A DNA stretch of 64,000 bases from an uncultured Spirochaetales bacterium (GCA_949293335.1 CASFDA010000010.1:2567-66566); one strand, 5' to 3'; counted from the first letter of the stretch, positions 16,918-34,006 are shown. Translations and numbers: made by a program. Notes: generated from the letters alone by a model not told the origin.

Positions 16918-16949
16918 TCTTTCGTTTATTATATAGTGTGAGTTAGGTT

Positions 16950-18833: not shown

Positions 18834-19760
18834 ATGAGTACTAAGGAAAAAACTTTAAAACGAAAATTTGCATTTTTAAATAAAATTTTCTGGATTGGTT
18901 TTTATTCAAAACATTGGATAAATTACATAAACAATAAGAAAATAAATTTGTTTATGAGCACTATAGGAAATGAAGCTCAATCCCTTATTGAAAAATACAA
19001 AGATACTGTTGTTCCTTCTAGCCCTATAGGAAATAGAGTTTGGGTATTTTGGTACACTGGATTGGAAACTGCTCCTTCCATAGTAAAAAAATGCATTGAA
19101 GAGATGAAGAAAGTTGAGGAGATTGATCTTGTCGTATTAGATAAAAACAACTTAGATAATTATTTCAACTGGAACGAGGATATAAAGAAACGTTTTACAG
19201 ATGGAACCATATCTGTAACTTTTCTTTCAGATGTAATACGTAATCAGCTTTTATCTCGATTTGGCGGGTTCTGGTTCGATGCTACCCTTTTAATCATAGA
19301 CAAGTCTTTCTTGAAAGAACATATGAATGATAATTTCTACTCTTTAAAGCATGGAGACTATGCAGCTTGCTCACATTTTAACAATGGTATGTGGAGTTCT
19401 TTTCTTACAGGAGCACCAAAAAATCATCCTCTTACCTCTTTTGCTTATGAGTTTTTTTGTTGGTATTGCAGCAAATATGAGAGCTTGGTGGATTATTTTC
19501 TAATTGATTATGTGTATATGCTTGCTTATCTCTCATTCGATCAGGTAAAAACTCAAATTGATTCTCTCGAGGCAGAGAATGAAGATGTGTTTTATATGGG
19601 GCGCAATATTCACAAAAAATGTACAGCAGTAAAGTGGGAGCAAGTTTTATATAAAAATAAACTACAAAAGCTGATATGGAATGTGAAAGGAGCTGAGAAA
19701 TTAGGAAAAGAGTCTTTCTATTCTCGTATTCTTGCTTATAACGGAGAAGAAAATGACTAA
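18834..19760 (+). CDS. capsular polysaccharide synthesis protein family glycosyltransferase (Caps_synth / GT32-like), paralogue
   Basis: RVWVFWYTGLETAPSIVKKCIEEMKK...FLSDVIRNQLLSRFGGFWFDATLLI parallels 15958..16917. Confidence 0.75.
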   Translation: MSTKEKTLKRKFAFLNKIFWIGFYSKHWINYINNKKINLFMSTIGNEAQSLIEKYKDTVVPSSPIGNRVWVFWYTGLETAPSIVKKCIEEMKKVEEIDLVVLDKNNLDNYFNWNEDIKKRFTDGTISVTFLSDVIRNQLLSRFGGFWFDATLLIIDKSFLKEHMNDNFYSLKHGDYAACSHFNNGMWSSFLTGAPKNHPLTSFAYEFFCWYCSKYESLVDYFLIDYVYMLAYLSFDQVKTQIDSLEAENEDVFYMGRNIHKKCTAVKWEQVLYKNKLQKLIWNVKGAEKLGKESFYSRILAYNGEEND

Positions 19761-20901
19761 TCGAAAGCTCAGAGTGTTATATGTTTTTGGTGCTATTTCA
19801 GATGGTGGTGTTGAACATATCACTTCGGATCTAGTAAAAAATATGGATCCTGAAGTTGTTACTGTTTCAGCAGTTTATCATAGTTGTGATATAAAAGAAG
19901 GAATACAGGCTATACCTTGTCTTTATGAGCTGTGGCCCAATATGGAAAAGGCTCCTAATTTCAACACCTTGAATTGTGTGCAGTATAGGCATTGGTGGAA
20001 AAGCTTCATTGCTTCACATGAAAAATATGACATTGTTCATCTTCATTATGTTGATTCAGCTTTCTGTTATTTAGATTTATTTAAAAAAGCTGGGACAATA
20101 ACAATTTGTCATTCGCATAACCCACACGCAAAGCCTTTTACATTAGGTCTCCTCTGGAGCATGATAATATCATATCCAGCTCGATATATATGTGATTATG
20201 CTTTTGGGTGTTCACATCAAGCCGCAGAAGAGATATTTGGTCGCAAAATGCTTGAAAGCGGGCGCTGTCAAGTTTTATTTAATGGCATATATTTAGACAA
20301 GTTTAAATATAACAAAGAAAAACGAAATCTAATCCGCAGAGAAGAAGGTATTAGTGACGATAAGGTCATCATAGGCCATGTTGGACGTTTTGAATATCAA
20401 AAGAATCACAGTTTTCTTATAGATATCTTCAATTATTATCACAATGAGATTAATAACAATTCAGAGCTTTGGCTTATTGGTACTGGTAGCCTTTTGGGGC
20501 AAATACAAGAAAAAGTAAAAACATTGGGATTGACCGATCATGTTAGATTCTTTGGCAATATATCGAATGTAAGTGACTATTTGCAGGCGTTCGATTGTTT
20601 TTTGATGCCATCGAATTATGAAGGACTGTCTTTGGCAATTGTTGAAGCACAAGTTTCTGGTCTTCCTTGTGTTGTATCTGATGCTATCCAGTTTGACAGT
20701 GATATTAAAGCAGGACTGCTCCATGTATTATCATTGAAAAAATCATCTATAAAAGATTGGTCATTGATGATCGATAACGTAGTAAAGAAAGAGAGGTTTG
20801 ACTGTACAACTTATGCAAAAGAAGCAGGCTTCGATATCAAGGAAGTTGCAAAGCAACTACAGAAGTTATATTGTGATGTTTGCCTGAGATTCTCAAATTA
20901 A
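19753..20901 (+). CDS. glycosyltransferase family 4
   Basis: LRVLYVFGAISDGGVEH and NYEGLSLAIVEAQVSGLPCVVSD (E-x7-E). Start at ATG 19753 behind GGAGAAG; the track start is a TTG. Overlaps the preceding gene by 8 nt. Confidence 0.8.
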   Translation: MTNRKLRVLYVFGAISDGGVEHITSDLVKNMDPEVVTVSAVYHSCDIKEGIQAIPCLYELWPNMEKAPNFNTLNCVQYRHWWKSFIASHEKYDIVHLHYVDSAFCYLDLFKKAGTITICHSHNPHAKPFTLGLLWSMIISYPARYICDYAFGCSHQAAEEIFGRKMLESGRCQVLFNGIYLDKFKYNKEKRNLIRREEGISDDKVIIGHVGRFEYQKNHSFLIDIFNYYHNEINNNSELWLIGTGSLLGQIQEKVKTLGLTDHVRFFGNISNVSDYLQAFDCFLMPSNYEGLSLAIVEAQVSGLPCVVSDAIQFDSDIKAGLLHVLSLKKSSIKDWSLMIDNVVKKERFDCTTYAKEAGFDIKEVAKQLQKLYCDVCLRFSN

Positions 20902-20950
20902 GACTTAATTTGTAAAACTTTAGGTCTGTACATTTATATTATAAACAGCA

Positions 20951-21982
20951 ATGGGGTTTAATGTGTTTTATAATTTATTGACTCATAAGAAAAAGGCTTC
21001 GGGGGGGGCGCTAGCAATATTTTTAATTTTGATTTTGATTGCTATTCCTTCCTGTTCTCGTGAAACTGAAAGCAATGAAATCATGATATATACAACAGGG
21101 GAAGATTTCCGGACAGAAAATCTAAGAGCAGATCTAGATGAAAGGTTTCCTGACTATGATATAACCATTGAGTACTATCCAACAGGTAATCTTGCTGCCA
21201 AGCTTGTAGCAGAATCAGGACATTCCGAAGGTGATATTATACACTCATTCGATTATGGTTATTACAGTATGGTTGGTCATGAATTTGCTCCTCTTGACTA
21301 CGATACTTCTGTATATGATCCAGATGCTTTGATTTTTGATAATGATGGTACCTTGCGTATTGTTCCAGAGTTGAAAAATAGCGGAGTTGTAGTTGTGAAT
21401 ACAGAGGTTCTTGCAGAAAGAAATTTGCCCGAACCTGAAAGTTATATGGATCTGCTAGATCCAATGTACAAAGGTTTGATTTCGATGCCAAATCCAAAAA
21501 CTTCTGGTACGGGATACATGTTTCTTAAGCTCCTAGTTAATGAGATGGGAGAAGATGAGGCTTTCAGCTATTTTGATGCTTTCAGTGATAATGTGCTCCA
21601 GTATACAACTTCTGGGTCTGGTCCAGTGAATGCACTTGTGCAAAAAGAGGTGGCTATAGGGCTAGCGATGACTGCACAGGTAGTTGAAGAACAGCAGAAA
21701 GGAGCTCCTCTGAAGATCATTGCATTGGATTATGGTAGCCCATTTTGTTTCTATGGAAGTGCTATCATCAACGGTAAAGAAACCAGAGCACAAGTCAAAG
21801 AGGTCTTTGACTATATAGTAACTGACTATATTCCAAAAGAAAGAGAACTGTGGTTCCCAGAAAAGATATACAAAGATAAGGACTTCATTATTCAAGGATA
21901 TCCGACAGATATTGTCTATGGAGATATGTCAAATAATACACCAGAAGAAAAGGAAAGGCTTCTTTCTAAGTGGGAATATTGA
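20951..21982 (+). CDS. ABC transporter substrate-binding lipoprotein (Fe3+/thiamine/2-aminoethylphosphonate-type family)
   Basis: 343 aa. Signal peptide ends in a lipobox-like IAIPSCS. The KTSGTGYMFLKL block is typical of this class of type-II SBPs. Confidence 0.7.
   Translation: MGFNVFYNLLTHKKKASGGALAIFLILILIAIPSCSRETESNEIMIYTTGEDFRTENLRADLDERFPDYDITIEYYPTGNLAAKLVAESGHSEGDIIHSFDYGYYSMVGHEFAPLDYDTSVYDPDALIFDNDGTLRIVPELKNSGVVVVNTEVLAERNLPEPESYMDLLDPMYKGLISMPNPKTSGTGYMFLKLLVNEMGEDEAFSYFDAFSDNVLQYTTSGSGPVNALVQKEVAIGLAMTAQVVEEQQKGAPLKIIALDYGSPFCFYGSAIINGKETRAQVKEVFDYIVTDYIPKERELWFPEKIYKDKDFIIQGYPTDIVYGDMSNNTPEEKERLLSKWEY
21001..21008 (+). repeat. homopolymeric G8 tract inside codons 17-20 of the SBP gene
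   Basis: cttc GGGGGGGG cgc, read directly. It encodes ...ASGGA... in the signal-peptide region. It is the longest G/C run I noticed in the window and lies in an AT-rich locus. Confidence 0.9.
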
Positions 21983-22761
21983 TGAGTAAGAAGATAGAGG
22001 TTATAGGTCTTTCAAAAAGATTCAATGCGGGAAAAGAAATTCTTGATGATGTAAGCTTTGATGTAGAAGAAAGTGAATTCTTGTCGATACTTGGTCCTTC
22101 GGGGTGTGGAAAGACGACTCTTTTGCGAATACTTATTGGTTTGCTTTCACCTACATCTGGAAAAATAATTAAAGATGGAATTGATATCACATTGCTTCCT
22201 CCGGATAGAAGGAGCATGGGAATAGTCTTTCAGAATTATGCACTATTTGAAAATATGTCAGCCATCAAGAATGTTGCCTATGCTTTATATGTGCATCATG
22301 ACACAAAGGAAGATGCATATAAGAAAGCAGAAGAGATCCTGACTCTGATGGGGCTTTCTAAGGATATTTTCCACCTTAAACCTGCAATGCTATCTGGAGG
22401 ACAGCAGCAGCGTGTTGCAATTGCTAGAACTCTTGCACTTGGACCTGATGTAATATTGTTTGACGAACCGCTGAGCGCTCTTGATATTGATACGCGAATT
22501 CTCCTGAGAAAAGAAATAAAGACACTTCAGAAGAAGCTTGGGACAACAATGATCTATGTTACCCATGATCAGGAGGAGGCTTTCTCTTTATCTGATAGAA
22601 TCATGGTTATGCAGAACGGAAAAATAGAACAGATAGGAACTCCAGATGAACTGATCGACAATCCTTCAAGTGATTATGTTCGTCATTTTGTTCGTGATAA
22701 TATAGAAGCGAAGATAGAGGGCCTGATAAGGTTCTATAGAAAGGAAGAACTTACAAAGTGA
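21982..22761 (+). CDS. ABC transporter ATP-binding protein
   Basis: Walker A GPSGCGKTT, signature LSGGQQQRVAIAR, Walker B ILFDEPLSALD. The ATG shares one base with the SBP TGA. Short (259 aa), with no C-terminal TOBE-like extension. Confidence 0.9.
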   Translation: MSKKIEVIGLSKRFNAGKEILDDVSFDVEESEFLSILGPSGCGKTTLLRILIGLLSPTSGKIIKDGIDITLLPPDRRSMGIVFQNYALFENMSAIKNVAYALYVHHDTKEDAYKKAEEILTLMGLSKDIFHLKPAMLSGGQQQRVAIARTLALGPDVILFDEPLSALDIDTRILLRKEIKTLQKKLGTTMIYVTHDQEEAFSLSDRIMVMQNGKIEQIGTPDELIDNPSSDYVRHFVRDNIEAKIEGLIRFYRKEELTK

Positions 22762-24311
22762 AAAAGAAAATCTCGTATCTTCTTCTGTTATTCTTTTTTA
22801 TCGCTCTATGCTTTCCAATAATCCTACTATTTATAGAGGCAGGGCAATCTGATGTAGCGGAGATCCTGTTTTCTTCAAGGTTCTCGGAAGCATTGAAGAA
22901 TTCTATTATCTCTTCAAGTGTTGCAACATTTTTCTCTGTGACTCTTGCATATCTTCTTTCGTATTCTCTTACAAGGGTTAATATTCCTTTTTCTAGTGTT
23001 TTTAATATTCTTTTTACTTCGCCGATGCTGTTGCCATCCCTGTCGATTGGAATGGGTATAATTCTTCTTTTTGGACAGAATGGTATTGTTACTAGACTTT
23101 TCAATTCAAGTACATCTATTTATGGTTTCATTGGTATCGTGCTGGGGTCAATACTTTACTCTTTCCCTGTTGCCCTGATAATGATTACAGAGATGCTCAA
23201 AGGGGAGGATGCAACTCCATATGAAGCAGCGAAGGTTCTTCAATTAGGGAAGATACATACTTTTTTAGCTGTTACGTTTCCTTATATCAAGAAACCAATG
23301 ATAGCTACGATATTTGCTGTTTTTACAATGATAATTACAGATTATGGTGTGCCGTTAATGATAGGGGGAAGATATGTAACTCTTCCAGTGATAATGTATC
23401 AGGATGTAATTGGCATGCTCGATTTCGGAAAAGGAGCGGTCATTGGAATTGTACTTCTTTTTCCTGCTGTTGTTGCTTTCATACTTGAAGTGGTTAATAA
23501 GGATTCTAATATATCTACATTTACAAGAAAGCAGATAGAAAAGACAGACAAGATATTAGTGAGAAACATTGTATTCATAATTTGTCTCGTTGCTCTTTTG
23601 CTCGTAGTTGCTCCAATCATTTGTTTTTTAATCCTTTCTTTCTCAACTGATTATCCTGTTAATCTGGCATTTACAACAGAGCACATAAGATCAACATTAG
23701 ATAGGGGAGCGCTTGAGTATTGGGGCAATTCTCTCCTAATCTCGTTTTTTACATCTTTTATCGGTACAGGAATTTCATTTATGACTGCTTATATTACAAC
23801 AAGATGTAATGTAAAGAGTCGGAATATTCTGCACATATTATCTCTTCTCACACTTGCTATTCCTGGTATTGTACTCGGACTTTCTTATTCGATGGCTTTT
23901 AGTGGATCTTTCATATATGGAACGATATTAATACTTGTGTTTGTTAATATAATTCACTTTTTCTCTTCCCCGTATCTTATGGCTAATAATGCTTTGAGTA
24001 AGATTAATAGTAATCTTGAAGATGTAGGGGCCACCCTTGGCATTCCTCGTCTTAATTTCATTTTCAATGTCATTGTTCCAATATCATTTTCATCAATGGT
24101 TGAGATGGCTTCATATTTCTTCATCAATTCGATGATGACAATATCTGCTGTGTCATTTCTTGCTACGTCCCATACTCGTCCACTTTCTCTTCTCATTTCT
24201 TCTTTTGAAGCGCAGATGCTGATCGAATGTATTGGGGTTGTCTCATTGATGATATTCCTGACAAACATAGTGGCAAAATTCTTATTTCATTTGTTAAAGA
24301 AGGTTGTATGA
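22758..24311 (+). CDS. ABC transporter permease, fused double-domain (ThiP/FbpB/AfuB-like)
   Basis: 517 aa with two tandem 6-TM permease halves. The GTG start overlaps the ATPase stop (GTGA). Confidence 0.85.
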   Translation: MKKKISYLLLLFFFIALCFPIILLFIEAGQSDVAEILFSSRFSEALKNSIISSSVATFFSVTLAYLLSYSLTRVNIPFSSVFNILFTSPMLLPSLSIGMGIILLFGQNGIVTRLFNSSTSIYGFIGIVLGSILYSFPVALIMITEMLKGEDATPYEAAKVLQLGKIHTFLAVTFPYIKKPMIATIFAVFTMIITDYGVPLMIGGRYVTLPVIMYQDVIGMLDFGKGAVIGIVLLFPAVVAFILEVVNKDSNISTFTRKQIEKTDKILVRNIVFIICLVALLLVVAPIICFLILSFSTDYPVNLAFTTEHIRSTLDRGALEYWGNSLLISFFTSFIGTGISFMTAYITTRCNVKSRNILHILSLLTLAIPGIVLGLSYSMAFSGSFIYGTILILVFVNIIHFFSSPYLMANNALSKINSNLEDVGATLGIPRLNFIFNVIVPISFSSMVEMASYFFINSMMTISAVSFLATSHTRPLSLLISSFEAQMLIECIGVVSLMIFLTNIVAKFLFHLLKKVV

Positions 24312-25219
24312 ACAAAAGTGAATTCGATTTACTAACATTAATTTATAAGAATAAGAAGACAAGACTGGAAGATTTATCAAAAGTCACAAGAACTCCGCTT
24401 GCGCGAATAACACAAATTGTTGAAAAGCTAAAAGATGATGGTATTCTTTCCGAATCCAGAAAAAAAGAGATTAGCATTTCCGAAAAAGGAGAACTGAGGC
24501 TTGAGCCATATCGAGTGAGAAAAATGCTGATAATCGCTGCGGGCTTTGGCTCTCGTCTTGTTCCTGTGACACTAAATACACCCAAACCGCTTATCAGAGT
24601 AAATGGTACAAGGATAATTGATACTATTCTCGATACATCTTTGGCTGCTGGAATAGAGGATATAACGATTGTAAGAGGGTATCTTTCTGAGCAGTTTGAT
24701 CAGCTATTATATAAGTACCCAAATCTGAAGTTTGTTTATAATCCATATTTCAATGAAGCGAATAACATTTCTTCACTTTATATATCTTCATCGCAGGTTG
24801 ATGCAGAAAATATGTACATTGCAGAGGCTGATTTGCTTATATCAAATCCATCGATTATAGAGAAATACCAATGGTCATCAAATTATTTGGGAGTTCCGGT
24901 AAAACGAACTGACGACTGGTGCTTTACAGTATCTTCTGATAAAGATTCCAAAATACAAAGCCTTTCTGTAGGTGGATATGATTGTTATCATATGTTTGGA
25001 ATTTCATTTTGGGCCAAAACCGACGTTGAAAAGTTATATGAAGATGTTCGGAAAGCCTGGCTTCTTCCTGGAGGAAAAGAGAAGTACTGGGATCAAGTAC
25101 CTCTCGATATTTTTAAAGATGACTTTTCTGTCTCGGTACGAAAATGCTCTTTTTCTGACATCGCAGAGATAGATACTTTCAGAGAATTGCAGGATATTGA
25201 TCATTCTTATTGCTATTAA
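24308..25219 (+). CDS. winged-helix + LicC-like nucleotidyltransferase (phospho-headgroup cytidylyltransferase family)
   Basis: ATG 24308 overlaps the permease TGA (ATGA). Residues 1-70 look like a MarR-type wHTH (LEDLSKVTRTPLARITQIVEKLKDDGIL). This is followed by the LIIAAGFGSRLVPVTLNTPKPLIRVNG nucleotide-binding loop, as in LicC. Confidence 0.7.
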   Translation: MNKSEFDLLTLIYKNKKTRLEDLSKVTRTPLARITQIVEKLKDDGILSESRKKEISISEKGELRLEPYRVRKMLIIAAGFGSRLVPVTLNTPKPLIRVNGTRIIDTILDTSLAAGIEDITIVRGYLSEQFDQLLYKYPNLKFVYNPYFNEANNISSLYISSSQVDAENMYIAEADLLISNPSIIEKYQWSSNYLGVPVKRTDDWCFTVSSDKDSKIQSLSVGGYDCYHMFGISFWAKTDVEKLYEDVRKAWLLPGGKEKYWDQVPLDIFKDDFSVSVRKCSFSDIAEIDTFRELQDIDHSYCY

Positions 25220-26049
25220 GAATTGATCCATGCTGTAAAACCATGTGTAATGCGTTTTTCAACTGGAGGGAGTTCCATATAGTCTTTTCCATAAGCTTTC
25301 TTGAGATATGTGTCATAGTCATTAGGGACACAAAGCATGCTGTCTCTGAATTTTATTCTTCTGACTGGAAATAACACTTCCTTTTTTACTGCGGATCGCT
25401 CAATCCCTTCTCCCCAGATGATGTTGCCACAGTAATTGGCATCATCAAAGTTGATTTTAGATGCCACTTCGTTTGCCTTTTTAGTAAAAAATGGACGAAT
25501 TTGTTTGTAAAGAAGATGAGGGATGAATGTTCCTATATTATTGATCAGTTTGATAAGAGGTTTCTCATTTCCTCTGTTTATCCACATTGTTCCCATTGCC
25601 GGCTGCTTTATCATATTAACTCTGTTCTGGAGCTTTTCCATTTCTTTTTTCTCATCAGGAAGGCCATCTAATGGGAAAATGTCTACATATATTCCTATAT
25701 TGTATGGCTTGTAGTATTCTGTCTCATCAATAATCCTGGAATTAGGAAGATAGATCTTTCCAAAAGGAAAGGGGTATAAACCAGTTTCGTCATTTTCTGG
25801 TGAAATGTAATCGAAGTCTAGATTCTTTTCTGTCTTAATAAGTTCAGACAGCTTCATGTAATCAGGCCTGGGGACATATACATCCATGTCATCATCCCAG
25901 GGAATAAAGTCATGGTGTCTGACAGCCCCAAGGCAAGACCCATCAGATAACATGTATGTGATTGAGTGTTTTTCGCAAAACTTGTCAAAAGATACTACTA
26001 GAGAATATAGGATTTCATGCAGTTCATTGATTGATTCAATCTTTTTCAT
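25216..26049 (-). CDS. LicD-family phosphotransferase (phosphocholine/phospho-alcohol transferase)
   Basis: MLSDGSCLGAVRHHDFIPWDDDMDVYVPR is the signature N-terminal LicD motif. 277 aa. Confidence 0.85.
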   Translation of the reverse strand: MKKIESINELHEILYSLVVSFDKFCEKHSITYMLSDGSCLGAVRHHDFIPWDDDMDVYVPRPDYMKLSELIKTEKNLDFDYISPENDETGLYPFPFGKIYLPNSRIIDETEYYKPYNIGIYVDIFPLDGLPDEKKEMEKLQNRVNMIKQPAMGTMWINRGNEKPLIKLINNIGTFIPHLLYKQIRPFFTKKANEVASKINFDDANYCGNIIWGEGIERSAVKKEVLFPVRRIKFRDSMLCVPNDYDTYLKKAYGKDYMELPPVEKRITHGFTAWINS

Positions 26050-26181
26050 AAAAGTTCTATTTCCTTAAAAAAACTTGGATATAATGCATCTAAGCAAAGA
26101 ATATGTTAGTATAACTTTGTTATTTTCAAAAGAGTTTTAAGCTTTTGTGTAAAAGTTGATTGATAGGGGATAGCAGGTAGT

Positions 26182-26970
26182 ATGGAAACTATTTTTGTAG
26201 TAAGTCATCTAAATAATTTTAAAATATCCACAAGATCAAATCTTCATCAAATTATTCGTGTCGGTGAATCAGCAAACATGCTTTCTGAATGCGAAGAATA
26301 TAAAGATAACACTTTAGACAATATATCTCAAAAAAATAAATTTTATTGTGAGCTTACTGCTTTGTATTGGATATGGAAGAATATTAATTGCGATGTAATT
26401 GGACTAGAACATTATCGTAGATATTTTATCGGAACTGAACCGCTTGTAGTTAATCCTAACGGAAAACCAGAATTAATTTATGCAATTTCTAAAGATGAAA
26501 TTAATGATATTTTAGCATCTTCAAATGATACCATGATTTTGCCAAAGCCCTGGATAATGAAGAAAACAACTGTTAAAGATCAATTTAGTTCTTTTCATGG
26601 TCGAGCGAATTATTTACTGATGGAGAAATGCTTGGTTGAAACTTATCCAAACTTACGAGAAGCTTTTCTTGATATAATGAATTCAAATAGAATTTATACA
26701 TGTAACATGTTTATTTGTAAAACCAATTTAATACATAAGTATTGTGAGTGGTTATTTCCTTTGCTTCTTAAAATAGAGAATGCTATGGATCTAAGTTTGC
26801 CTGCCAATAATCGCATGATTGGATATATGAGTGAGCGCTTATTTAATGTTTGGTTACTCATACAACATCCACATATTGTAGAAAAAGATACTATTGTTTT
26901 TGTTGGTAAGGAGAATGGATTAATAAAAAGAATGAAAAGAAGAATTCAAGCAAGGAAAATGGGATATTAG
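26182..26970 (+). CDS. DUF4422 domain protein (putative glycosyltransferase)
   Basis: YCELTALYWIWKNINCDVIGLEHYRRYF is the hallmark block of DUF4422 exopolysaccharide proteins. Confidence 0.7.
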   Translation: METIFVVSHLNNFKISTRSNLHQIIRVGESANMLSECEEYKDNTLDNISQKNKFYCELTALYWIWKNINCDVIGLEHYRRYFIGTEPLVVNPNGKPELIYAISKDEINDILASSNDTMILPKPWIMKKTTVKDQFSSFHGRANYLLMEKCLVETYPNLREAFLDIMNSNRIYTCNMFICKTNLIHKYCEWLFPLLLKIENAMDLSLPANNRMIGYMSERLFNVWLLIQHPHIVEKDTIVFVGKENGLIKRMKRRIQARKMGY

Positions 26971-26979
26971 ATTATTGTT

Positions 26980-27584
26980 TTACATAGAATTGATGAAATG
27001 ATTTTTTGAGACTTTGTTATGAGTTTTGGGGAAAGGGACTCGGCCTCTTATGAGTAATAGATGGCAATCAGCAGTGAGTGTGCGACTGCCATCTTTGCCT
27101 TGTTCTTTCACCTTTCTTCCTGTTTGATCATAAGTCTTGAGTATTGTTCGGCGAAGAGAGAACTTGCCCCTTGAAGATCCTAGCGCCACATAGCAACGGT
27201 GTCGTCCTGAGTAGCAAGTTGCCCATGCGAGTCTTTCTATTCCTCCATATCCCCAAAAGTCTTGTGTGTTTTATCAAGAGGTAAAACAAAATGGGAAGTG
27301 TAGTCAAAAACTAAGATATAGAAATAAGGAAAAAGGTATAGATGTACGCAATAGATGACAAGAAGAAAGTAATAGAGCTTTACTAAAGTACGGCATTAGA
27401 TCCATAGGTTTGTTTCATGCGCTCTAGCACATCTCGTGTTGTCTCCCATTTGCATCCCAGCCATTCTGGCTGTCTGCCTTATGGAGTGACCTCGTTTCAA
27501 CAGCAGCATATCCTGCCAGTAGTTTCCTTTTTCATAAACTACCTTCGATAGAATGAAATAACGGCCCTTACGAGCCGTATCCAA
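26980..27584 (-). pseudogene. degenerate transposase/HTH remnant (fragments in different frames)
   Basis: 27396..27584 encodes ...YWQDMLLLKRGHSIRQTARMAGM..., which resembles the N-terminal HTH of IS21/IS30-type transposases. The downstream frame (about 27270..26980) has no proper start. Stops interrupt continuity and no intact DDE domain is present. Confidence 0.3.
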
Positions 27585-27968
27585 TCCTATTATCTATTAT
27601 CCATTCTTGTCGGTGAAGTGCAGATCATTTTGCAATATCCAAATTCTTGCGCACATCTTATTCATTTTTACTGTTGGAATATAATATGGTAAGGAACAAG
27701 CAGGTTGAGGTTAAGAAGATCGTGATGCAGTCGTTGAGTTCATCTTCTTCCACAATTATAAAAGACTAAAGGACGTACTTGGAGGGTGTTTCCAATAAAG
27801 TTTAGATTGTAAAACATGAGCGGAATTCACATTGAAGATTGACAGCTAAGACATGGAATAGGAAGATAGCAAGTGAACTATAACTATTATCAATTGGATA
27901 CAGTAGAAGAAAGAGTGTTCATATACCGGGTACATATATCAGCTATTAAATGGGAAGGTTTTTGAATA

Positions 27969-28880
27969 ATGATAAAAAAAGGATTTGAAAAAGAAATTAT
28001 AGATGGTTATGAAGTCTCTGAAAAAACAAAAAAAATCTGGTACGTTGAATTAGATTTATTACGAAAGTTTATTCAAGTATGCGAGGAAAATGATATAAAA
28101 TATTATTTAGCAGATGGTAGCCTGTTAGGTGCAGTTAGACATAAGGGCTTTATTCCTTGGGATAATGACATAGACATTGCTGTTCCTCGAAAGGATTATA
28201 ATAGGTTATTGAAAATAGCTCAGGCAAAATTTGTTTATCCATATTTTTTTCAATCATCATATTCTGATAAATACTATTTAAGGTTTCATTCACAATTAAG
28301 AAATACTACTACGACGGCAATCTTGGATGCTGAAAAGGGTGTTGCAAAGTTTAATCAAGGAATCTTTATTGATATTTTTCCATTAGATTGCTGTGCTCCA
28401 AATATAAAATTACAAAAAAAATTAGATAGGAAAATAAAATTCTACAATGCTCTTTTTTCATATATTGTTCCTTCCTGCCGAGAATCAAAAAAAGTAATAG
28501 GAATTATTCATAGTGTTCTATTAAATATAATTAGTTTATTTTTTATAGATAGAATTAAGCATAGGATATTTGCTCATGCCGATAAAATTTTGTCTTTATA
28601 TTCTAATAGTAAATCAACACTATCATACAATTTTTGGATTTCATCAGCAGATTTACCGTATAATGTTTTTGTAAATTCAAATGGTCAGAATTCATTTTTG
28701 GAATTTGAAGGAATAAAAGTAGCCGTTCCTTTTGATTATCAGAAATACTTGAAAATAAAATTTGGTGATGATTATATGATTCCGAAAAAAGGTGGTGATT
28801 CGCATGGGGAAGTTTTTTTTGATCCAGAAAATAGTTATGTAAAATATGTACGACGTAGAAGGTTGTGGGTTTTATATTAA
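27969..28880 (+). CDS. LicD-family phosphotransferase, second copy
   Basis: YLADGSLLGAVRHKGFIPWDNDIDIAVPR. 303 aa, in a very AT-rich context. Confidence 0.85.
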   Translation: MIKKGFEKEIIDGYEVSEKTKKIWYVELDLLRKFIQVCEENDIKYYLADGSLLGAVRHKGFIPWDNDIDIAVPRKDYNRLLKIAQAKFVYPYFFQSSYSDKYYLRFHSQLRNTTTTAILDAEKGVAKFNQGIFIDIFPLDCCAPNIKLQKKLDRKIKFYNALFSYIVPSCRESKKVIGIIHSVLLNIISLFFIDRIKHRIFAHADKILSLYSNSKSTLSYNFWISSADLPYNVFVNSNGQNSFLEFEGIKVAVPFDYQKYLKIKFGDDYMIPKKGGDSHGEVFFDPENSYVKYVRRRRLWVLY

Positions 28881-29308
28881 TAATGATTTAAATAATGGAT
28901 TATTACTTTTGCCAGAAAAAACGAGTATCCTAAAGAGGAGCTATCTTAATATAATTACAAATATCCATGAAAGAAAAAGTGTTGTGAAGATTAAACGATA
29001 ACAATAACAACCTACTCTTAATGTAGATATACAATGCGTCTTCAATAAAGAAATTGACACTATTGTTTTTCAATTATTAATTATGTCGATTTGTACGGTA
29101 ACTTGAGGATTCAAAGGAAGATGACTCAAAAAAGATAGGTAATGGAAGATGTTGTTAGTTTATCAGAATGTACTGATAAAGCTTTAGTGTTTTTCGAGAT
29201 TTAGATTGTTTTTACTAAACGAAAAGCATTAATAAAGTTTCCTTCTATATTTTTGTCCTATTGACCGTATATATACCATATTTGTATTCTGAAGAAAACT
29301 GAACATAT

Positions 29309-30271
29309 ATGAAGCTTATAACATTTGACAATATAAAATCATTGAATATAAACCCTGTGGATTGTTATAACTGGGTTGTCGATATGATTGCACATAAATC
29401 AACTGCAATCCTTCCTGCAAAAACCCATATGGATTTGTCTTGTGGTGTTTTCTGCAATGTTATGCCTAGTATAATTAAGATGTCGGACTGTAATTGGGGC
29501 GGAGTAAAAATTGTTACAAGGTATCCTCAACGAAGTCCTTCTCTTGATAGCAAAATACTTCTTTGGAATGCTGATTCTGGAGAATTCTTGGCTTTACTTG
29601 ATGGAAATTGGATCACTGCAATGCGAACAGGTGCAGTAGCAGCACATTCGATTAATTGTTTTGCAAAACAAGATTTTTATTCTATAGGAATTATTGGATT
29701 AGGGAATGTTGCTAGATCAACCCTTTTGGTTCTTGCATCTGTAATTAAACGAAAAATAAATATTAAGTTACTAAAATATAAAAATCAGGCTGAGCTATTT
29801 ATTGAAAGGTTTAAAGAATATAAAAACTTGCAGTTTACAATAGTAAATTCTGTACAGGATCTTATTGTAGGGTCAGATGTTATTATCTCATGTGCGACAT
29901 ATTTTGAAAATAATATTGCTTGCGATGAATGGTTTGACGAAGGAGTACTTTTACTTCCTATACATACAAGGGGATTCCTGAATTGTGATTTATTTTTCGA
30001 TAAGATTTATGCTGATGATACATCACATGTAGCACATTTTAAATATTTCAATAATTTTAAACATTTTGCAGAGGTCAGTGACTATGTTTGTGGACAAGAT
30101 ATAGGCCGTGAAAATAATCAAGAGAGAATTTTAGTTTATAATATTGGTCTTTCAATTCATGATATATATTATGCATCGCATATTTATAAAGAGATAATGA
30201 AAAGAACTGAGCTATATAACTCTTTGGTGAACTTAAGGCTAGAAGAACCTACTCAGAAATTTTGGATATAA
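29309..30271 (+). CDS. ornithine cyclodeaminase / mu-crystallin family NAD(P)-dependent enzyme
   Basis: WITAMRTGAVAAHSI followed by the Rossmann loop IGIIGLGNVARS, with overall length 320 aa, as in the OCD/mu-crystallin family. Confidence 0.7.
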   Translation: MKLITFDNIKSLNINPVDCYNWVVDMIAHKSTAILPAKTHMDLSCGVFCNVMPSIIKMSDCNWGGVKIVTRYPQRSPSLDSKILLWNADSGEFLALLDGNWITAMRTGAVAAHSINCFAKQDFYSIGIIGLGNVARSTLLVLASVIKRKINIKLLKYKNQAELFIERFKEYKNLQFTIVNSVQDLIVGSDVIISCATYFENNIACDEWFDEGVLLLPIHTRGFLNCDLFFDKIYADDTSHVAHFKYFNNFKHFAEVSDYVCGQDIGRENNQERILVYNIGLSIHDIYYASHIYKEIMKRTELYNSLVNLRLEEPTQKFWI

Positions 30272-30382
30272 TTGTAACTTTCTTTTCAGAACTGAATGGT
30301 ATGTATGTTTTTAAAATGTGAATTGTTTGTTGTATCAAAAGAGAATATCATCAGATAAAATTTGCAAAATCAAGGAAGTAAT

Positions 30383-32206
30383 ATGCAGGCAATAATACTC
30401 GCAGCAGGTATGGGACGGAGATTAAAATCCCTTACAAAATATAATACAAAATGTATGGTATCAGTTAATGGTCAAACACTAATAGAGAGAATGTTGCTTT
30501 TTCTTGAAAAGCTAAACTTTTCAAGAATTATAATTGTTGTTGGTTATAAAGCTGAAAATTTAATAAATTATGTTAAGAACTTAGAAATTAATACTGAAAT
30601 TATCTTCATACATAATTATGAATACGAACATACGAATAATATTTTTTCTTTATATTTAGCAAAGTCTGAATTAGAAAAAGAAGATACAATTCTTTTAGAG
30701 TCGGATATAATTTTTGAATATGAAATGCTTGAGGAATTATATTTTGATTCTTCTCCAAATGTTGCTATTGTCTCCAAATGGGAAAGTTGGATGGATGGGA
30801 CTGTTGTAGTATTGGACGATGCTACAAAAGTTACACAAATTATAGACAAGAAGCATTTTGACTATTTAAAAGTTAATGAATACTATAAAACTGTTAATAT
30901 TTACAAGTTTAGTAAAGAATTTTCAAAAAATAAATATATCCCATTTTTGGAAGCATATATTAGAGTTTTTGGTAATAATCAATACTATGAACAAGTTTTA
31001 CGTGTAATAACTTTAATTGATAAAGCGGATTTGAAAGCCTTCATTACAGAAAGAAAGTGGTATGAAATAGATGATGTTCTGGATTTAGATGTTGCAGAGC
31101 TTATTTTTGAGGAAAATAAAGAGCAGAAATATAATTCAATTTGCCATAGATATGGTGGATATTGGAGATTCCCCAAGCTCATTGATTTTTGTTATTTGGT
31201 GAATCCGTATTTCCCGCCTGCTGTTTTTGAAGAAAATTTAAAAATATCTTTTTCTTCTCTTCTAACTCAATATCCTTCTGGTCAGTTGCCCAATGCCCTG
31301 TTGGCGGCAAATTTATTTGATTTAAATCAAGATTCCGTTATCGTTGGGAATGGTGCAGCCGAATTGATTTCAGCTGTCACTAGGCAATTTAAAACAGCAA
31401 AATTTGGCATATGTTTACCCTCGTTTGAAGAGTATTTAAATCGGATACAAAAAACAAATGCTGTTATTTTTAATGCTATTCCACCAACATATAGATATTC
31501 TGCTGATGATTTGATTGACTTTTTTTCTTCAAAAAAAATTGATTTTCTTGTTTTAGTTAATCCTGATAATCCTACAGGATCTTATATAGATGGTGATGGA
31601 ATACAAAAATTGGTTGCTTGGACGCAAAAAAAACAAATCATGTTAATCATTGATGAATCTTTTGTTGATTTTGCAGATAAGCCCTATTCTGTTCTAAACC
31701 AGGACTTTTTGGACAGAAATAAAAATGTTTTAGTAATAAAAAGTATTTCGAAATCATATGGGATACCTGGTGTCAGACTTGGAATTATGGCATCGGCAAA
31801 CACTAAAATTATATCTGCTATTCGAAGTTTTATTTCAATTTGGAATATCAATTCTTTTGGTGAGTACTGTTTACAAATTTTGGAAAAGTATTCAAATGAA
31901 TATGTATCTTCCTTAAAATTACTTCGGGCAGAAAGAACTTTTCTTTATGATGAATTGTGTAAGATAAAACAAGTTCATCCTGTAGAATCTCAGGCAAATT
32001 ATATTATGTGTAAATTGGATCTTGATTCTAGTTATATTTCATCTGAATTATTTACATCATATAATATTTTAATAAAGGATTTATCAAAGAAGAAAGGAAT
32101 AACTGGGAATTATGTTCGAATAGCTATTCGAAATAGACAAGACAATTTAAAATTGCTTGCAGCTCTGTATAAAGTTTTTGATGATTATTATAGGAAGACG
32201 AAATAA
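30383..32206 (+). CDS. bifunctional nucleotidyltransferase (LicC/GlmU-like N-domain) / fold-type I PLP enzyme (HisC/CobD-like C-domain)
   Basis: N-domain: MQAIILAAGMGRRLKSLTKYNTKCMVSVNG. C-domain: VNPYFPP, GNGAAELI, NPDNPTG, DESFVDF, and SISKSYGIPGVRLG with the PLP Lys. Start at ATG 30383 behind AAGGAAG; the track start is a TTG. Confidence 0.75.
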   Translation: MQAIILAAGMGRRLKSLTKYNTKCMVSVNGQTLIERMLLFLEKLNFSRIIIVVGYKAENLINYVKNLEINTEIIFIHNYEYEHTNNIFSLYLAKSELEKEDTILLESDIIFEYEMLEELYFDSSPNVAIVSKWESWMDGTVVVLDDATKVTQIIDKKHFDYLKVNEYYKTVNIYKFSKEFSKNKYIPFLEAYIRVFGNNQYYEQVLRVITLIDKADLKAFITERKWYEIDDVLDLDVAELIFEENKEQKYNSICHRYGGYWRFPKLIDFCYLVNPYFPPAVFEENLKISFSSLLTQYPSGQLPNALLAANLFDLNQDSVIVGNGAAELISAVTRQFKTAKFGICLPSFEEYLNRIQKTNAVIFNAIPPTYRYSADDLIDFFSSKKIDFLVLVNPDNPTGSYIDGDGIQKLVAWTQKKQIMLIIDESFVDFADKPYSVLNQDFLDRNKNVLVIKSISKSYGIPGVRLGIMASANTKIISAIRSFISIWNINSFGEYCLQILEKYSNEYVSSLKLLRAERTFLYDELCKIKQVHPVESQANYIMCKLDLDSSYISSELFTSYNILIKDLSKKKGITGNYVRIAIRNRQDNLKLLAALYKVFDDYYRKTK

Positions 32207-32290
32207 ATCAATTTTATTTGCTATGTCATAAATCTAGTTATAGGTAAAGGTTGTAGTAAATAGGAGGATAAATGTAATAGAGGTTTTATT

Positions 32291-33301
32291 TTAAATAAAA
32301 ATATAATTAGTTCTCGTGGTTTCCTGCCACCAGTCTTCATTAGAAAGATACCAATCAATTGTCTTCTCAATCCCGTCTGCAAACATAGTTTCAGGAAGCC
32401 AATCTAGTTCCGTGTGTATTTTTTCCGGATCGATTGCATATCTCTGGTCATGTCCTTTTCTGTCTGCAACAAACTCTATCAATGATTCTGGTTTGTTGAG
32501 CTTTTTGAGAATGAGCTTAACTATATCTATATTTCTCATCTCATTATGGCCACCAATATTGTAGATTTCTCCATCTTTTCCTTTGTGTAAGATGAGATCT
32601 ATTGCCTTGCAATGGTCCTCAACATATAACCAGTCTCTTACATTGATACCTTTGCCATAGACAGGCAGTTTCTTGTCATTCAGTGCATTGATAATCATCA
32701 GAGGAATCAACTTCTCAGGAAATTGATAGGGACCATAGTTGTTGGAACATCTTGAGATCGTTACAGGTAGTCCATATGTTCTGTGGTAGGCTTGCACCAA
32801 AAGGTCAGCCGATGCTTTGGATGCACTATATGGAGAACTTGTATGGAGTGGGGTAGTCTCTTTAAAGAGAAGATCAGGTCTGTCCAGAGGTAGATCTCCA
32901 TATACCTCGTCAGTAGATACCTGATGAAACCGACTGACTCCATATTTTTTGGATGCATCCATGAGCACAGATGTTCCGATGATGTTTGTTTCCAAAAAGA
33001 TACCTGGATTCTCAATTGATCTATCGACATGGCTCTCTGCTGCAAAGTTGACTACAATATCTGGATGGTACTCTGTAAAAACAGCATCAATTGCGTTTCT
33101 GTCTCTGATATCTCTTCTGATGAACTTGAACTGCGGATTATCCATTACATCTTTGAGGGTAGATAGGTTTCCTGCATATGTAAGAGCATCAAGACAGATT
33201 ATATGGTAATCTGGATGCTTTTTAAGCATGTGGAATACAAAGTTTGAGCCAATAAAGCCAGCGCCACCAGTTACTAGAATTCGCAATTGTTTTCTCCCCA
33301 T
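32291..33301 (-). CDS. rfbB: dTDP-glucose 4,6-dehydratase
   Basis: ILVTGGAGFIGSNF, SPYSASKASADLLVQAY (YxxxK), 336 aa. Collinear with RmlB/RfbB throughout. Confidence 0.9.
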   Translation of the reverse strand: MGRKQLRILVTGGAGFIGSNFVFHMLKKHPDYHIICLDALTYAGNLSTLKDVMDNPQFKFIRRDIRDRNAIDAVFTEYHPDIVVNFAAESHVDRSIENPGIFLETNIIGTSVLMDASKKYGVSRFHQVSTDEVYGDLPLDRPDLLFKETTPLHTSSPYSASKASADLLVQAYHRTYGLPVTISRCSNNYGPYQFPEKLIPLMIINALNDKKLPVYGKGINVRDWLYVEDHCKAIDLILHKGKDGEIYNIGGHNEMRNIDIVKLILKKLNKPESLIEFVADRKGHDQRYAIDPEKIHTELDWLPETMFADGIEKTIDWYLSNEDWWQETTRTNYIFI

Positions 33302-34006
33302 GAAAACATGATTTCAATTTGATGCTAATGTGCAATCAGGTTTTGGACAATGTATTTTGATAAACAATAAGAATAATTTACTGGTTTTCGTTGTGCATGA
33401 TCTTTTGGAATTTGATAGAGGAAAGGATTAGATCACAACATTATGGTGACTAATTTGTGGCAATAAGCAAAACCCTCTTTCTTATAAGATTTTCAACGAA
33501 TGAAAGAATGATACAGGGGAGGGTGTACAGAGAACGAAGACCTCCTTGTTGTGTTGTTTAATTAAAGTCTCCATGTTTGAATATCGCCTCAGCATAAATT
33601 TATCTGCGTCTGTATCCTTTGTTTCCATGTTCAATTGAGATTGAATTCACTGGTTTTCGATACATATCAATTCGATAGATTATGTCTCTGCAATGGGCTA
33701 ATTTATGCATGTGCAGCAATGCCATCGTTACGGGAGGAATATACCTTTCCTGATGCGATTTGGCTTCAAAATTCATGTTAGCCGGTTGATAGGCCTCCTG
33801 TGTTCCTTGTCATATGGCTATAGATACATTGCCAATAGTAAAAGATGCAATTGGATATAGATAATTATATATTAAATAAAAGATTATCTATAAAAATTTA
33901 TCAATCTTTATTTTTGTAAAGGCACTTTGCATAATAAAATTGCAGTGTTTGAATGCACAACAAGCTGATCGTGTCAATACCTGAAAATCTTTTACGATAA
34001 ATTTTC

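Follow-up and report, generated by a model that had tools for sequence, protein, structure and literature searches.

The window analyzed here, a 64,000-nucleotide stretch from an uncultured Spirochaetales bacterium (GCA_949293335.1 CASFDA010000010.1:2567-66566), contains a low-GC glycan island in which a gene for an ornithine cyclodeaminase (OCD)/mu-crystallin-family enzyme precedes a gene fusing a LicC-like nucleotidyltransferase to a pyridoxal phosphate (PLP) enzyme of the CobD/HisC branch. The annotated features of the island, with the profile (Pfam or NCBIfam) scores on which they rest, are as follows.

13815-20901: a multi-span membrane protein (no Pfam hit), two Caps_synth proteins, a Branch (core-2/I) family protein, a GT1/GT4 glycosyltransferase and one open reading frame (ORF) without a match; GC is 0.29-0.38, against 0.43-0.49 in the flanks
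20951-24311, + strand: ABC importer with substrate-binding protein, ATPase and fused permease, resembling the putative 2-aminoethylphosphonate (AEP) transporter PhnS2/T2/U2
24302-25219, + strand: stand-alone LicC-like nucleotidyltransferase (PF00483/PF12804, residues 75-188) with an N-terminal extension of about 70 residues
25216-26049, - strand: LicD-family phosphotransferase (PF04991, 156.8 bits)
26182-26970, + strand: DUF4422 protein, a putative glycosyltransferase (PF14393, 200.8 bits)
27969-28880, + strand: LicD-family phosphotransferase (PF04991, 135.2 bits; NCBIfam Mf1 model, 99.8 bits), 428 nt upstream of the OCD gene, predicted to transfer the phospho-head group from its CDP derivative to the glycan
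29309-30271, + strand: OCD/mu-crystallin-family NAD(P) enzyme (320 aa), predicted opine-type synthase acting on the 2-aminoethyl phosphate head group
30383-31132, + strand: N-terminal LicC-like nucleotidyltransferase domain of the fusion (residues 1 to about 250), predicted CTP:phosphoethanolamine cytidylyltransferase
31157-32206, + strand: C-terminal CobD/HisC-branch PLP domain of the fusion (residues about 259-607), predicted O-phospho-L-serine decarboxylase giving phosphoethanolamine
32291-33301, - strand: dTDP-glucose 4,6-dehydratase RmlB (TIGR01181, 498.9 bits; cut-off, 365.1), convergent with the fusion and marking the 3' edge of the island

The gene content described in the original prediction is confirmed. 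The ORF of the fusion spans 30362-32206 but is best started at ATG 30383, which follows an AAGGAAG ribosome-binding site, and residues M1-Q2-A3 are invariant in homologues. The 607-aa product contains the PLP-enzyme motifs VNPYFPP, NPDNPTG and SISKSYGIPGVRLG named in that prediction, and their core residues are invariant in 16 homologues. The two genes lie on the same strand, 111 nt apart, with no terminator-like site between them. The identical gene pair is found on three independent metagenome contigs, and the gene order including the upstream LicD is the same on contigs L001 to L003 (L numbers denote the loci and contigs compared). No PEP mutase motif (EDKxxxxxNS) occurs in any of the six frames of the window, and no choline kinase domain was seen in the ORFs scanned, which did not cover the whole window. 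The N-terminal extension of the stand-alone LicC, previously called a helix-turn-helix, had no Pfam match.

The 320-aa protein matches PF02423 (OCD_Mu_crystall) with an E value of 5.7e-27 and 94.9 bits against a gathering score of 24, over residues 50-297. Its AF2 model (pTM 0.77) matches only OCD/CRYM-superfamily structures, with TM scores of about 0.7, consistent with the fold of the superfamily, a Rossmann NAD(P) domain plus a dimerization/substrate domain. K67 (GGVK) and R106 (AMRTG), which align with conserved motifs of 6T3E and correspond to the residues binding the substrate α-carboxylate in OCD structures, are invariant in the subfamily, as is the dinucleotide motif GLGNVAR. The protein nevertheless falls below every NCBIfam equivalog cut-off for a named OCD-family function (ornithine cyclodeaminase, AlaDH, Pyr2C reductase, SbnB, BhcD and EutC): the best score is 92.5 bits against a cut-off of 417, with SbnB (TIGR03944, the second-best model) at 78.9 against 326.9 and AlaDH at 70.9 against 409. 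It is not close to any characterized member, the best PDB hit being a Pyr2C reductase at 5e-19.

The N-terminal half of the fusion is covered by NTP_transf_3/NTP_transferase (PF12804/PF00483, residues 3-156) and TIGR03992 (residues 1-248), matches LicC (PDB 1JYK, 4.9e-13) and the Treponema denticola fusion Tde1415 (6PD1, 8.9e-10), and has invariant GMGxRL and WYEIDD motifs. The C-terminal half matches Aminotran_1_2 (PF00155, residues 278-592, 114.9 bits). N396, D424, K457 and R465, which by alignment with CobD/HisC motifs are the Asn, the Asp to the pyridine N, the Schiff-base Lys and the Arg of the PLP site, are invariant in 16 homologues, as expected of a fold-type I enzyme of this branch. 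The best NCBIfam models are CobD (TIGR01140, 177.8 bits; cut-off, 290.55) and HisC (TIGR01141, 151.1 bits; cut-off, 276.55), and neither equivalog cut-off is reached. The best PDB hit is the “threonine phosphate decarboxylase-like enzyme” 6OUX (4.7e-48), ahead of CobD 1LC5 (9.3e-28) and the HisC entries. Sequence alone does not separate a decarboxylase from an aminotransferase. 6OUX is probably SMUL_1544, as its molecule name equals the annotation of that protein (PMC7755780), an identification resting on the name only. SMUL_1544 governs synthesis of norcobamides, which carry an ethanolamine linker (PMC6759758), and is reportedly an O-phosphoserine (Ser-P) decarboxylase (Keller et al. 2016/2019). 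The fusion family occurs in at least 585 species.

Grouping of the fusion with the known AEP transaminase/cytidylyltransferase, with the phosphonate genes elsewhere, had been set in advance as a result that would overturn the original prediction, and it was not observed. Tde1415 matches only residues 2-233 and its aminotransferase is named class V in the PDB entry, whereas the PLP half here is class I/II (PF00155, not PF00266) and closest to Thr-P/Ser-P decarboxylase-type enzymes. The PEP mutase (Ppm) motif is absent from 87 of 88 related loci as well as from the window, although the rest of the genome was not searched, and in true AEP clusters the OCD gene accompanies a separate class V AEP transaminase (AEPT) rather than this fusion. 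The N-terminal match to Tde1415, the occurrence of OCD homologues in real Ppm/Ppd/AEPT clusters and the AEP-transporter-like ABC system in the window are compatible with a CMP-AEP-forming enzyme, but this reading is very unlikely and is already contradicted by domain family. The ABC components scored best with the PhnS2/T2/U2 models but below all three equivalog cut-offs (TIGR03261, 167.6 against 392.75; TIGR03265, 303.9 against 457.7; TIGR03262, 370 against 593.25 bits). The system is a probable scavenging route feeding the stand-alone LicC, whose homologues sit next to OCD genes or octopine-dehydrogenase-family (ODH) genes in L005, L048, L133, L134, L142 and L173.

The second such criterion, absence of linkage between the OCD-like gene and the fusion, was also not fulfilled, as the two are strongly linked. 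The OCD gene is directly adjacent to the fusion, on the same strand and with gaps of -38 to 100 nt, in three cultured genomes (Aristaeella, Butyrivibrio and Sarcina) and in most OCD-positive species loci (OCD is present in 11 of 80). Of 38 metagenome OCD loci with enough flank, 21 have the fusion adjacent and 4 have it within 6 kb, 3 have a stand-alone CobD-like PLP gene, 5 lie in PntC-Ppm-Ppd-AEPT clusters and 2 have only LicC. The common denominator is H2N-CH2-CH2-(O)-PO3 plus a cytidylyltransferase, in most of these loci with a LicD gene as well. LicD also lies near the fusion in many loci. An ordinary amino acid metabolism gene, such as an ornithine cyclodeaminase or pyrroline-2-carboxylate reductase placed next to the fusion by chance, is therefore very unlikely. 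Databases do name homologues “ornithine cyclodeaminase”, but the same subfamily (41-68% identity) is adjacent to the fusion or to other aminoethyl-phosph(on)ate genes in 35 of 38 loci that can be evaluated, spanning many taxa and otherwise unrelated neighborhoods, and all NCBIfam equivalog scores are far below cut-off.

In 20 of 80 species loci, the slot after the fusion is instead occupied by a PF02317 octopine/nopaline-dehydrogenase-family gene, and none of the 80 loci carries both. The best PDB matches of this protein are Pecten octopine dehydrogenase (6.7e-21) and CENDH, and the catalytic His, Arg and Asp of octopine dehydrogenase align. Loci with otherwise identical neighbors carry ODH in one genome and OCD in another (L041 against L045, L074 against L056, and L025/L088 against L069), and partner types are interspersed in the fusion tree. 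The absence of co-occurrence is only marginal statistically, with about 2.8 loci carrying both genes expected among the 58 with enough flank. Of these 58, 32 have neither partner, which is therefore optional or encoded elsewhere, and no residue of the fusion correlates convincingly with partner presence (best P, 2.5e-5 over 3637 tests that are not phylogenetically independent). In tandem OCD+ODH contigs, one gene is broken in all four cases that can be judged (L105, L126, L147 and L148), although frameshifts in metagenome contigs can be assembly errors. By slot and by redundancy, the OCD gene thus behaves as the counterpart of an ODH-family gene.

Two further readings were considered at this point. 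In the first, the OCD enzyme would be an alanine (amino acid) dehydrogenase regenerating the amino donor (pyruvate + NH3 + NADH to L-alanine) for a HisC-like aminotransferase domain making an amino-alcohol phosphate, such as serinol phosphate from dihydroxyacetone phosphate. Archaeal alanine dehydrogenase belongs to the OCD family and is a top sequence and structural neighbor, the PLP domain scores well on the HisC model, and in Ppm clusters OCD sits next to the class V AEP transaminase, which uses alanine and pyruvate. However, this is unlikely, because OCD also occurs with no aminotransferase at all (ABC + LicC + OCD + LicD in L133 and L134, without any PLP gene; LicC + OCD in L142; LicD-OCD in L127). 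In addition, characterized members of the interchangeable ODH family condense amines rather than ammonia with 2-oxo acids, an ODH gene also sits with LicD, LicC and a nucleotidyltransferase-kinase fusion and no PLP enzyme (L173), and the PLP domain is nearer the decarboxylase branch. In the second, the fusion would be a Thr-P decarboxylase/cytidylyltransferase giving CDP-(R)-1-aminopropan-2-ol, or another amino-alcohol phosphate, with the OCD enzyme still tailoring the amine. CobD is the best NCBIfam model and CobD structures 1LC5 and 3FKD are among the top PDB hits, but this too is unlikely. The score is well below the equivalog cut-off, and none of the recurrent neighbor families annotated near the fusion is a kinase, although most singleton neighbors were not annotated. 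In OCD contexts the fusion is interchangeable with AEP synthesis and with a kinase or importer plus LicC, which points to a two-carbon aminoethyl head group, and Ser-P is a universal metabolite, whereas Thr-P is not.

The best explanation, to which we assign a probability of roughly 0.5, is that the two genes form a head group cassette for a LicD-type phosphotransferase, making activated phosphoethanolamine and adding a carboxyalkyl (“opine”) group to its amine. Domain content and intact catalytic motifs of both proteins are confirmed, while each of the following steps is inferred. The PLP domain would decarboxylate O-phospho-L-serine to phosphoethanolamine, and the LicC-like domain would condense this with CTP to give CDP-ethanolamine. 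On the basis of analogous gene displacement, the OCD enzyme would use NAD(P)H to condense the primary amine with an unidentified 2-oxo acid (pyruvate, glyoxylate and 2-oxoglutarate are candidates), giving an N-(1-carboxyalkyl)-2-aminoethyl phosphate, a “phospho-opine” that is the phosphate counterpart of tauropine. No activity, including the reductive condensation itself, was measured, the product is not identified, and the data do not distinguish alkylation of free phosphoethanolamine from that of CDP-ethanolamine or the lipid-linked glycan. A neighboring LicD would then move the phospho-head group onto the glycan built by the rest of the island. The LicD-family protein Mf1 transfers phosphoethanolamine from CDP-ethanolamine (PMC11982090), but both LicD proteins of the window, which match PF04991 above its gathering score, score below the Mf1 equivalog cut-off. 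Precedents for the OCD step are the sponge tauropine and strombine dehydrogenases of the OCD/CRYM superfamily (PMC4141209) and an OCD homologue that alkylaminates 2-oxo acids (PMC8446579), and taurine is the sulfonate isostere of AEP and phosphoethanolamine. In this view, the OCD subfamily is a general tailoring partner of 2-aminoethyl-phosph(on)ate routes, working elsewhere with de novo AEP synthesis, with importers or with a stand-alone PLP enzyme.

The interpretation originally offered, that the fusion makes an amino-alcohol phosphate or aminophosphonate and activates it at once for a LicD transferase, is supported in its amino-alcohol phosphate form, which fits all comparative evidence, but the aminophosphonate alternative is not supported for this fusion. 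The OCD enzyme, which could not previously be placed in any head group route, is now placed by comparative evidence, as inference rather than demonstration, as an opine-type tailoring enzyme. The genes for such a predicted surface decoration, which appears in gut and rumen bacteria of several phyla, have not been described. More tentatively, gut, rumen and sediment bacteria of at least Bacillota, Bacteroidota, Spirochaetota and Actinomycetota may decorate surface glycans with a previously unrecognized class of head groups, N-(1-carboxyalkyl)-2-aminoethyl phosphates and phosphonates. These would be built by the Ser-P decarboxylase/cytidylyltransferase fusion or the AEP pathway plus one of two unrelated but interchangeable opine synthases (OCD or ODH type), and installed by LicD. 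The 2-[(R)-1-carboxyethylamino]ethyl phosphate of Proteus mirabilis O14 O-antigen, on which our literature search found no paper, is chemically the predicted head group if the 2-oxo acid is pyruvate. It is known only as a structure in a Gram-negative O-antigen, to our knowledge its genes are unassigned, and Proteus loci were not examined. If correct, this reading would provide a gene basis for that substituent and a new bacterial, non-catabolic role for opine synthases.

Among known systems, the CobD/SMUL_1544-type phospho-amino acid decarboxylases (Thr-P decarboxylase of cobalamin synthesis, Ser-P decarboxylase of norcobamide synthesis and Cj1436 of Campylobacter) are the closest sequence relatives of the PLP half, and ethanolamine phosphate is the product attributed to SMUL_1544. 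Here, however, the domain is fused to a nucleotidyltransferase and sits in glycan loci rather than cobamide operons. SbnB and CmnK (4M54 and 7CXS), which act on the opine-like N-(1-amino-1-carboxy-2-ethyl)-glutamate, share the fold of the OCD enzyme, are among its top structural neighbors and show that the family handles acyclic secondary amines of 2-oxo acids, but SbnB works oxidatively to release L-Dap and pairs with a fold-type II PLP enzyme (SbnA). In tauropine and strombine dehydrogenases, the same two unrelated families are implicated in one reaction type, NADH-dependent condensation of a 2-aminoethyl acid (taurine) with pyruvate: the sponge enzymes belong to the OCD family (Kan-no et al. 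2005, cited in PMC4141209), and mollusc and annelid tauropine dehydrogenases belong to the octopine dehydrogenase family. This mirrors the OCD/ODH interchange next to 2-aminoethyl phosph(on)ate genes. No sponge sequence was compared; those are animal enzymes of anaerobic energy metabolism acting on a free sulfonate, and the setting here is bacterial glycan decoration with a phosph(on)ate. In the phosphonyl tailoring pathway of PntC and the PntC-AEPT fusion Tde1415 (Rice et al. 2019, PMC6697681; PDB 6PD1/6PD2), a LicC-like cytidylyltransferase is likewise fused to the PLP enzyme making the amine that it activates for cell surface decoration, but the PLP half is of a different class, ppm and ppd are lacking in the cluster here, and the paper does not mention cyclodeaminase, crystallin or opine enzymes. 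The Lic pathway for phosphocholine decoration in Streptococcus pneumoniae and Haemophilus (LicA kinase, LicC CTP:phosphocholine cytidylyltransferase and LicD transferase) follows the same logic of phospho-amine to CDP derivative to transfer onto a glycan, with a LicC-fold nucleotidyltransferase and LicD-family transferases. In the pathway proposed here, no kinase is present as far as the ORFs were scanned, the phospho-amine is predicted to come from a fused PLP decarboxylase, an additional NAD(P) enzyme (OCD type, or ODH type elsewhere) is attached, and the head group is predicted to be a primary or secondary amine rather than choline.

The OCD gene and the fusion lie at the 3' end of a low-GC island of roughly 14 to 34 kb, which is a glycan locus. 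GC is 0.29 to 0.38 in the island (window 14000-34000) against 0.43 to 0.49 in the flanks, and the OCD and fusion genes have the lowest values, at about 0.29 to 0.30, which suggests horizontal acquisition. The closest fusion homologues are only about 53 to 55% identical (the nearest named ones, at about 53%, are from Sphaerochaeta and Clostridia MAGs), while OCD homologues reach 67%. Rfam and tRNA scans showed no RNA element in the island, and a promoter and terminator scan did not exceed shuffled sequences. In addition to two Caps_synth proteins, a Branch-family protein, a GT1/GT4 glycosyltransferase, a DUF4422 protein and, at the edge, an RmlB gene that passes its equivalog cut-off, the island contains the following features.

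20951-26049: PhnS2/T2/U2-like ABC importer, followed by a stand-alone LicC-like nucleotidyltransferase with an N-terminal extension of about 70 residues and a divergent LicD
25216-26049, minus strand: this divergent LicD, the first of the two LicD genes
26971-27968: about 1 kb between the DUF4422 gene and the second LicD, with no ORF of 70 aa or more (only short ORFs on both strands) and no Rfam match; it could be a decayed gene or a mobile-element remnant, but its origin was not examined
27969-28880, plus strand: second LicD gene
29309-30271: OCD/mu-crystallin-family protein
30383-32206, same strand as the OCD gene: nucleotidyltransferase-PLP enzyme fusion of 607 aa

The OCD/mu-crystallin-family protein (PF02423, 94.9 bits) is far below every NCBIfam equivalog cut-off. 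The fusion gene follows it after 111 nt, with a ribosome-binding site and no terminator-like site between the two genes. Residues 1 to about 250 of the fusion form a LicC-like nucleotidyltransferase, and residues about 259 to 607 form a class I/II PLP enzyme whose best models are CobD (177.8 bits) and HisC (151.1 bits), both below cut-off. The original prediction had described an OCD-family gene next to such a fusion, and this observation is confirmed. The identical cassette is present on three other metagenome contigs.

The known cytidylyltransferase-aminotransferase fusion, Tde1415, makes AEP from phosphonoacetaldehyde and activates it to CMP-AEP (PMC6697681). Tde1415 (6PD1) matches only residues 2 to 233 of the window protein (8.9e-10), and its aminotransferase is class V; the reading of the fusion as an AEP transaminase fusion is therefore rejected by domain family and PDB matches. 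A phosphonate route, in which a dehydrogenase makes phosphonoalanine from phosphonopyruvate and the CobD-like domain decarboxylates it to AEP, was also considered and dropped, as no Ppm motif is present in the window or in 87 of 88 fusion loci. The full genome of this organism was not searched for pepM/ppd or for a Thr kinase. The PLP half is closest to 6OUX, “threonine phosphate decarboxylase-like enzyme” (4.7e-48), followed by a clostridial “HisC” entry (3FTB), Salmonella CobD (1LC5, 9.3e-28) and true HisC entries. The molecule name of 6OUX is word for word the annotation of SMUL_1544 of Sulfurospirillum multivorans (PMC7755780), a gene that “governs norcobamide biosynthesis”, and norcobamides carry an ethanolamine linker instead of aminopropanol (PMC6759758). 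SMUL_1544 is reported to decarboxylate O-phospho-L-serine to ethanolamine phosphate. A Thr-P decarboxylase giving an aminopropanol head group is not excluded by sequence. No phylogeny of the PLP half with SMUL_1544, Cj1436, CobD and HisC was built. The PLP-site residues and the nucleotidyltransferase signature are invariant in 16 homologues.

The fusion architecture is common. Eight thousand database proteins match at E ≤ 1e-10, the listed best hits being about 600 aa with the same domains, and a pattern scan found the fusion in at least 585 species genomes, including Bacillota, Bacteroidota, Spirochaetota, Actinomycetota and Synergistota. Two kinds of recurrent neighbor appear: LicD, and a TagF-like protein paired with a YidC-sulfatase fusion. 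Both fit delivery of a phospho-head group to a wall or capsule polymer, and a LicD-family enzyme (Mf1) has been shown to transfer phosphoethanolamine from CDP-ethanolamine (PMC11982090). In about a dozen of the retrieved loci (L009, L019, L029, L031 to L033, L040, L046, L053, L060, L081 and L086; L numbers denote individual loci or contigs), the fusion is paired not with LicD but with the TagF-like protein (PF04464) and a roughly 900-aa YidC(60KD_IMP)-sulfatase fusion, which may be an alternative machinery installing the head group on a teichoic acid-like polymer. In Aristaeella and other genomes (L005 11295-17681, L048 from 12850 onward, and L031 from 12900 onward), the fusion and its partner are followed by a stand-alone LicC and an Opp-type (SBP_bac_5) ABC importer, a second kind of importer recurrently tied to these cassettes.

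The OCD protein of the window belongs to a tight subfamily, with members of about 321 aa, 61 to 67% identity to the nearest relatives and 81% mean column identity. In Aristaeella hokkaidonensis, Butyrivibrio sp. VCB2006 and Sarcina sp. DSM 11001, the OCD gene lies immediately after the fusion, in otherwise unrelated neighborhoods. Among 80 species loci retrieved with the fusion, 11 carry the OCD gene, mostly directly next to the fusion on the same strand with gaps of −38 to 100 nt; one locus has an intervening gene. The reverse scan, using the OCD subfamily against metagenomes, gave 38 loci with at least 2.3 kb on both sides, of which the fusion is adjacent in 21 and within 6 kb in 4. A phylogenetically corrected co-occurrence test over all of the at least 585 genomes was not run. 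An OCD gene unlinked to the fusion had been specified in advance as an outcome that would overturn the original prediction, and it was not observed. The interpretation of the two genes as parts of one candidate head-group pathway was, in this respect, supported.

ATP-grasp ligases recur between or beside the fusion and the OCD gene (L065 11820-12911, L112 4522-5583, L114 4861-5889, L117 3102-4163, L158 4880-6004, L007 15538-16488, and L163 4743-5981). Most are of the “sugar-transfer associated” type PF14397, while that of L163 is an L-amino-acid-ligase-like enzyme next to a FemAB-like protein. These ligases could extend the new carboxylate or the amine of the head group, giving further tailoring.

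The OCD loci without the fusion are the most informative. Five are canonical AEP clusters: a cytidylyltransferase-PEP mutase fusion and OCD are found in all five, a PntC- or LicC-like nucleotidyltransferase in addition in four, a TPP phosphonopyruvate decarboxylase in four, a class V AEP transaminase in three with certainty and LicD in three. The fullest example, L153, also has a MATE transporter. Three loci (L158 to L160) have a stand-alone CobD-like PLP gene, and L123 combines LicC, an amino-acid permease, OCD, AEPT and Ppm. L133 and L134 have a PhnS2/T2/U2-like ABC importer, LicC, OCD and LicD, with no PLP enzyme at all; this is the very module that lies upstream in the window (20951-26049), where it looks like a scavenging route for AEP or a similar phospho(no)-amine that needs no kinase. 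The window would then have two sources of head group and two LicDs.

These contexts share a route to a 2-aminoethyl phosphate or phosphonate, with a cytidylyltransferase in nearly all of them and, in most, a LicD transferase as well. This supports phosphoethanolamine, the isostere of AEP, as the product of the PLP domain of the fusion. It also shows that the OCD enzyme does not serve the PLP step; the enzyme is inferred to act on the amine head group, or alongside it. An alanine dehydrogenase role, recycling the amino donor, would fit the AEPT clusters but does not fit the loci without any aminotransferase or the interchange with a second enzyme family described below. A chance association of the OCD gene with the fusion is contradicted by the linkage data.

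Clustering of the neighbors showed a second partner, a 330- to 380-aa octopine/nopaline dehydrogenase-family (ODH) protein (PF02317, 115.7 bits), which sits directly after the fusion in 20 of the 80 species loci; none of those loci has both genes. One example is L041 11822-12901, and Perlabentimonas gracilis is an ODH-type strain, whereas Clostridium cavendishii DSM 21758 and Lientehia hominis have the fusion without a partner. Its best solved relatives are Pecten octopine dehydrogenase (6.7e-21) and Arthrobacter CENDH. The His in “...ILHTTRL” and the Arg and Asp in “SRYFTAD” align with the catalytic His-Asp dyad and the pyruvate-binding Arg.

Genomic context points to equivalence of the two partners. 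Loci with the same surrounding genes carry ODH in one genome and OCD in another (L041 against L045, L074 against L056, and L025/L088 against L069). In a neighbor-joining tree of the fusions, OCD-partnered, ODH-partnered and unpartnered proteins are interspersed, with L041/L045 and L056/L074 as sister pairs; no partner type forms a separate clade, and the partner therefore does not define a fusion subtype. Six metagenome contigs have OCD and ODH in tandem beside the fusion. One of the two genes is disrupted in the four contigs that can be judged (ODH is internally deleted in L105 and frameshifted in L126, and OCD is frameshifted in L147 and L148), while the other two contigs end inside the ODH gene. 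ODH-type genes also occur with LicD and the fusion in abundant gut contigs. In L173 (6918-11915), an ODH-type gene sits between LicD and a LicC-like gene, followed by a nucleotidyltransferase-choline/ethanolamine-kinase fusion, i.e., a kinase-based route to the same kind of head group with an opine dehydrogenase partner and no PLP enzyme.

The chemistry shared by the two families is NAD(P)H-dependent reduction of the imine formed between an amine and a 2-oxo acid. The OCD/CRYM superfamily already contains tauropine and strombine dehydrogenases of sponges (PMC4141209), and an OCD homologue alkylaminates 2-oxo acids (PMC8446579). No phylogeny of the OCD subfamily with the sponge tauropine and strombine dehydrogenases was built. 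SbnB, a top structural neighbor, binds an acyclic opine-like substrate. Taurine is the sulfonate counterpart of AEP and phosphoethanolamine, and tauropine dehydrogenases of molluscs and annelids belong to the octopine dehydrogenase family. The same pair of unrelated families is thus already known to catalyze one reaction on a 2-aminoethyl acid.

It is therefore proposed that the OCD enzyme of the window makes an N-(1-carboxyalkyl)-2-aminoethyl phosphate head group. The gene content, linkage and interchange of partners were observed, whereas all functional statements are inferences from sequence and comparative genomics. PLP chemistry needs a primary amine, and decarboxylation must therefore come first, but the data do not place alkylation before or after cytidylylation: in a column-by-column association of fusion residues with partner presence, no column survived correction (best p 2.5e-5 over 3637 tests). 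In addition, 32 of 58 fusion loci with enough flank have no partner. Both points suggest an optional tailoring step on a constant core pathway.

The AF2 model of the OCD protein is moderate overall (pLDDT 73.4, pTM 0.77) and is poorest, with pLDDT below 50, exactly over residues 220 to 280 (window 29966-30148). This is the most conserved segment of the subfamily (HTRGFxNCDLFFDK...DDTGHVDHF), with many invariant His, Arg, Lys and Asp residues, and has no clear counterpart in solved OCD-family structures. It may be the specific head-group site, but this is speculation.

Phosphocholine, phosphoethanolamine and AEP on bacterial surfaces control charge, recognition by pentraxins and antibodies, and resistance to cationic peptides. 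A route from phosphoserine straight to CDP-ethanolamine in one polypeptide has not been characterized, despite the wide occurrence of the fusion. If the attached OCD- or ODH-type enzyme converts the zwitterionic amine into an anionic N-carboxyalkyl secondary amine, this is a new chemical class of glycan decoration, which would be widespread in host-associated anaerobes. It would also be a clean natural example of non-homologous enzyme displacement and a likely answer to how carboxyethylamino-ethyl phosphate substituents are made.

Literature searches on 6OUX, on the fusion architecture with LicD, on phosphoserine decarboxylases including Cj1436, on carboxyethylamino substituents and on OCD enzymes with phosphonate and PEP mutase found nothing that links these genes, and no paper in the library searched connects opine or OCD enzymes with LicD, AEP or phosphoethanolamine decoration. 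A 2-[(R)-1-carboxyethylamino]ethyl phosphate substituent is known from the Proteus mirabilis O14 O-antigen, without assigned genes; the O14 O-antigen locus was not inspected for an ODH- or OCD-type gene. The system is best placed with the LicC/LicD (and Pnt) head-group pathways, to which it adds an uncharacterized, predicted Ser-P decarboxylase/cytidylyltransferase fusion and a new, inferred tailoring step carried out by either of two analogous enzymes.
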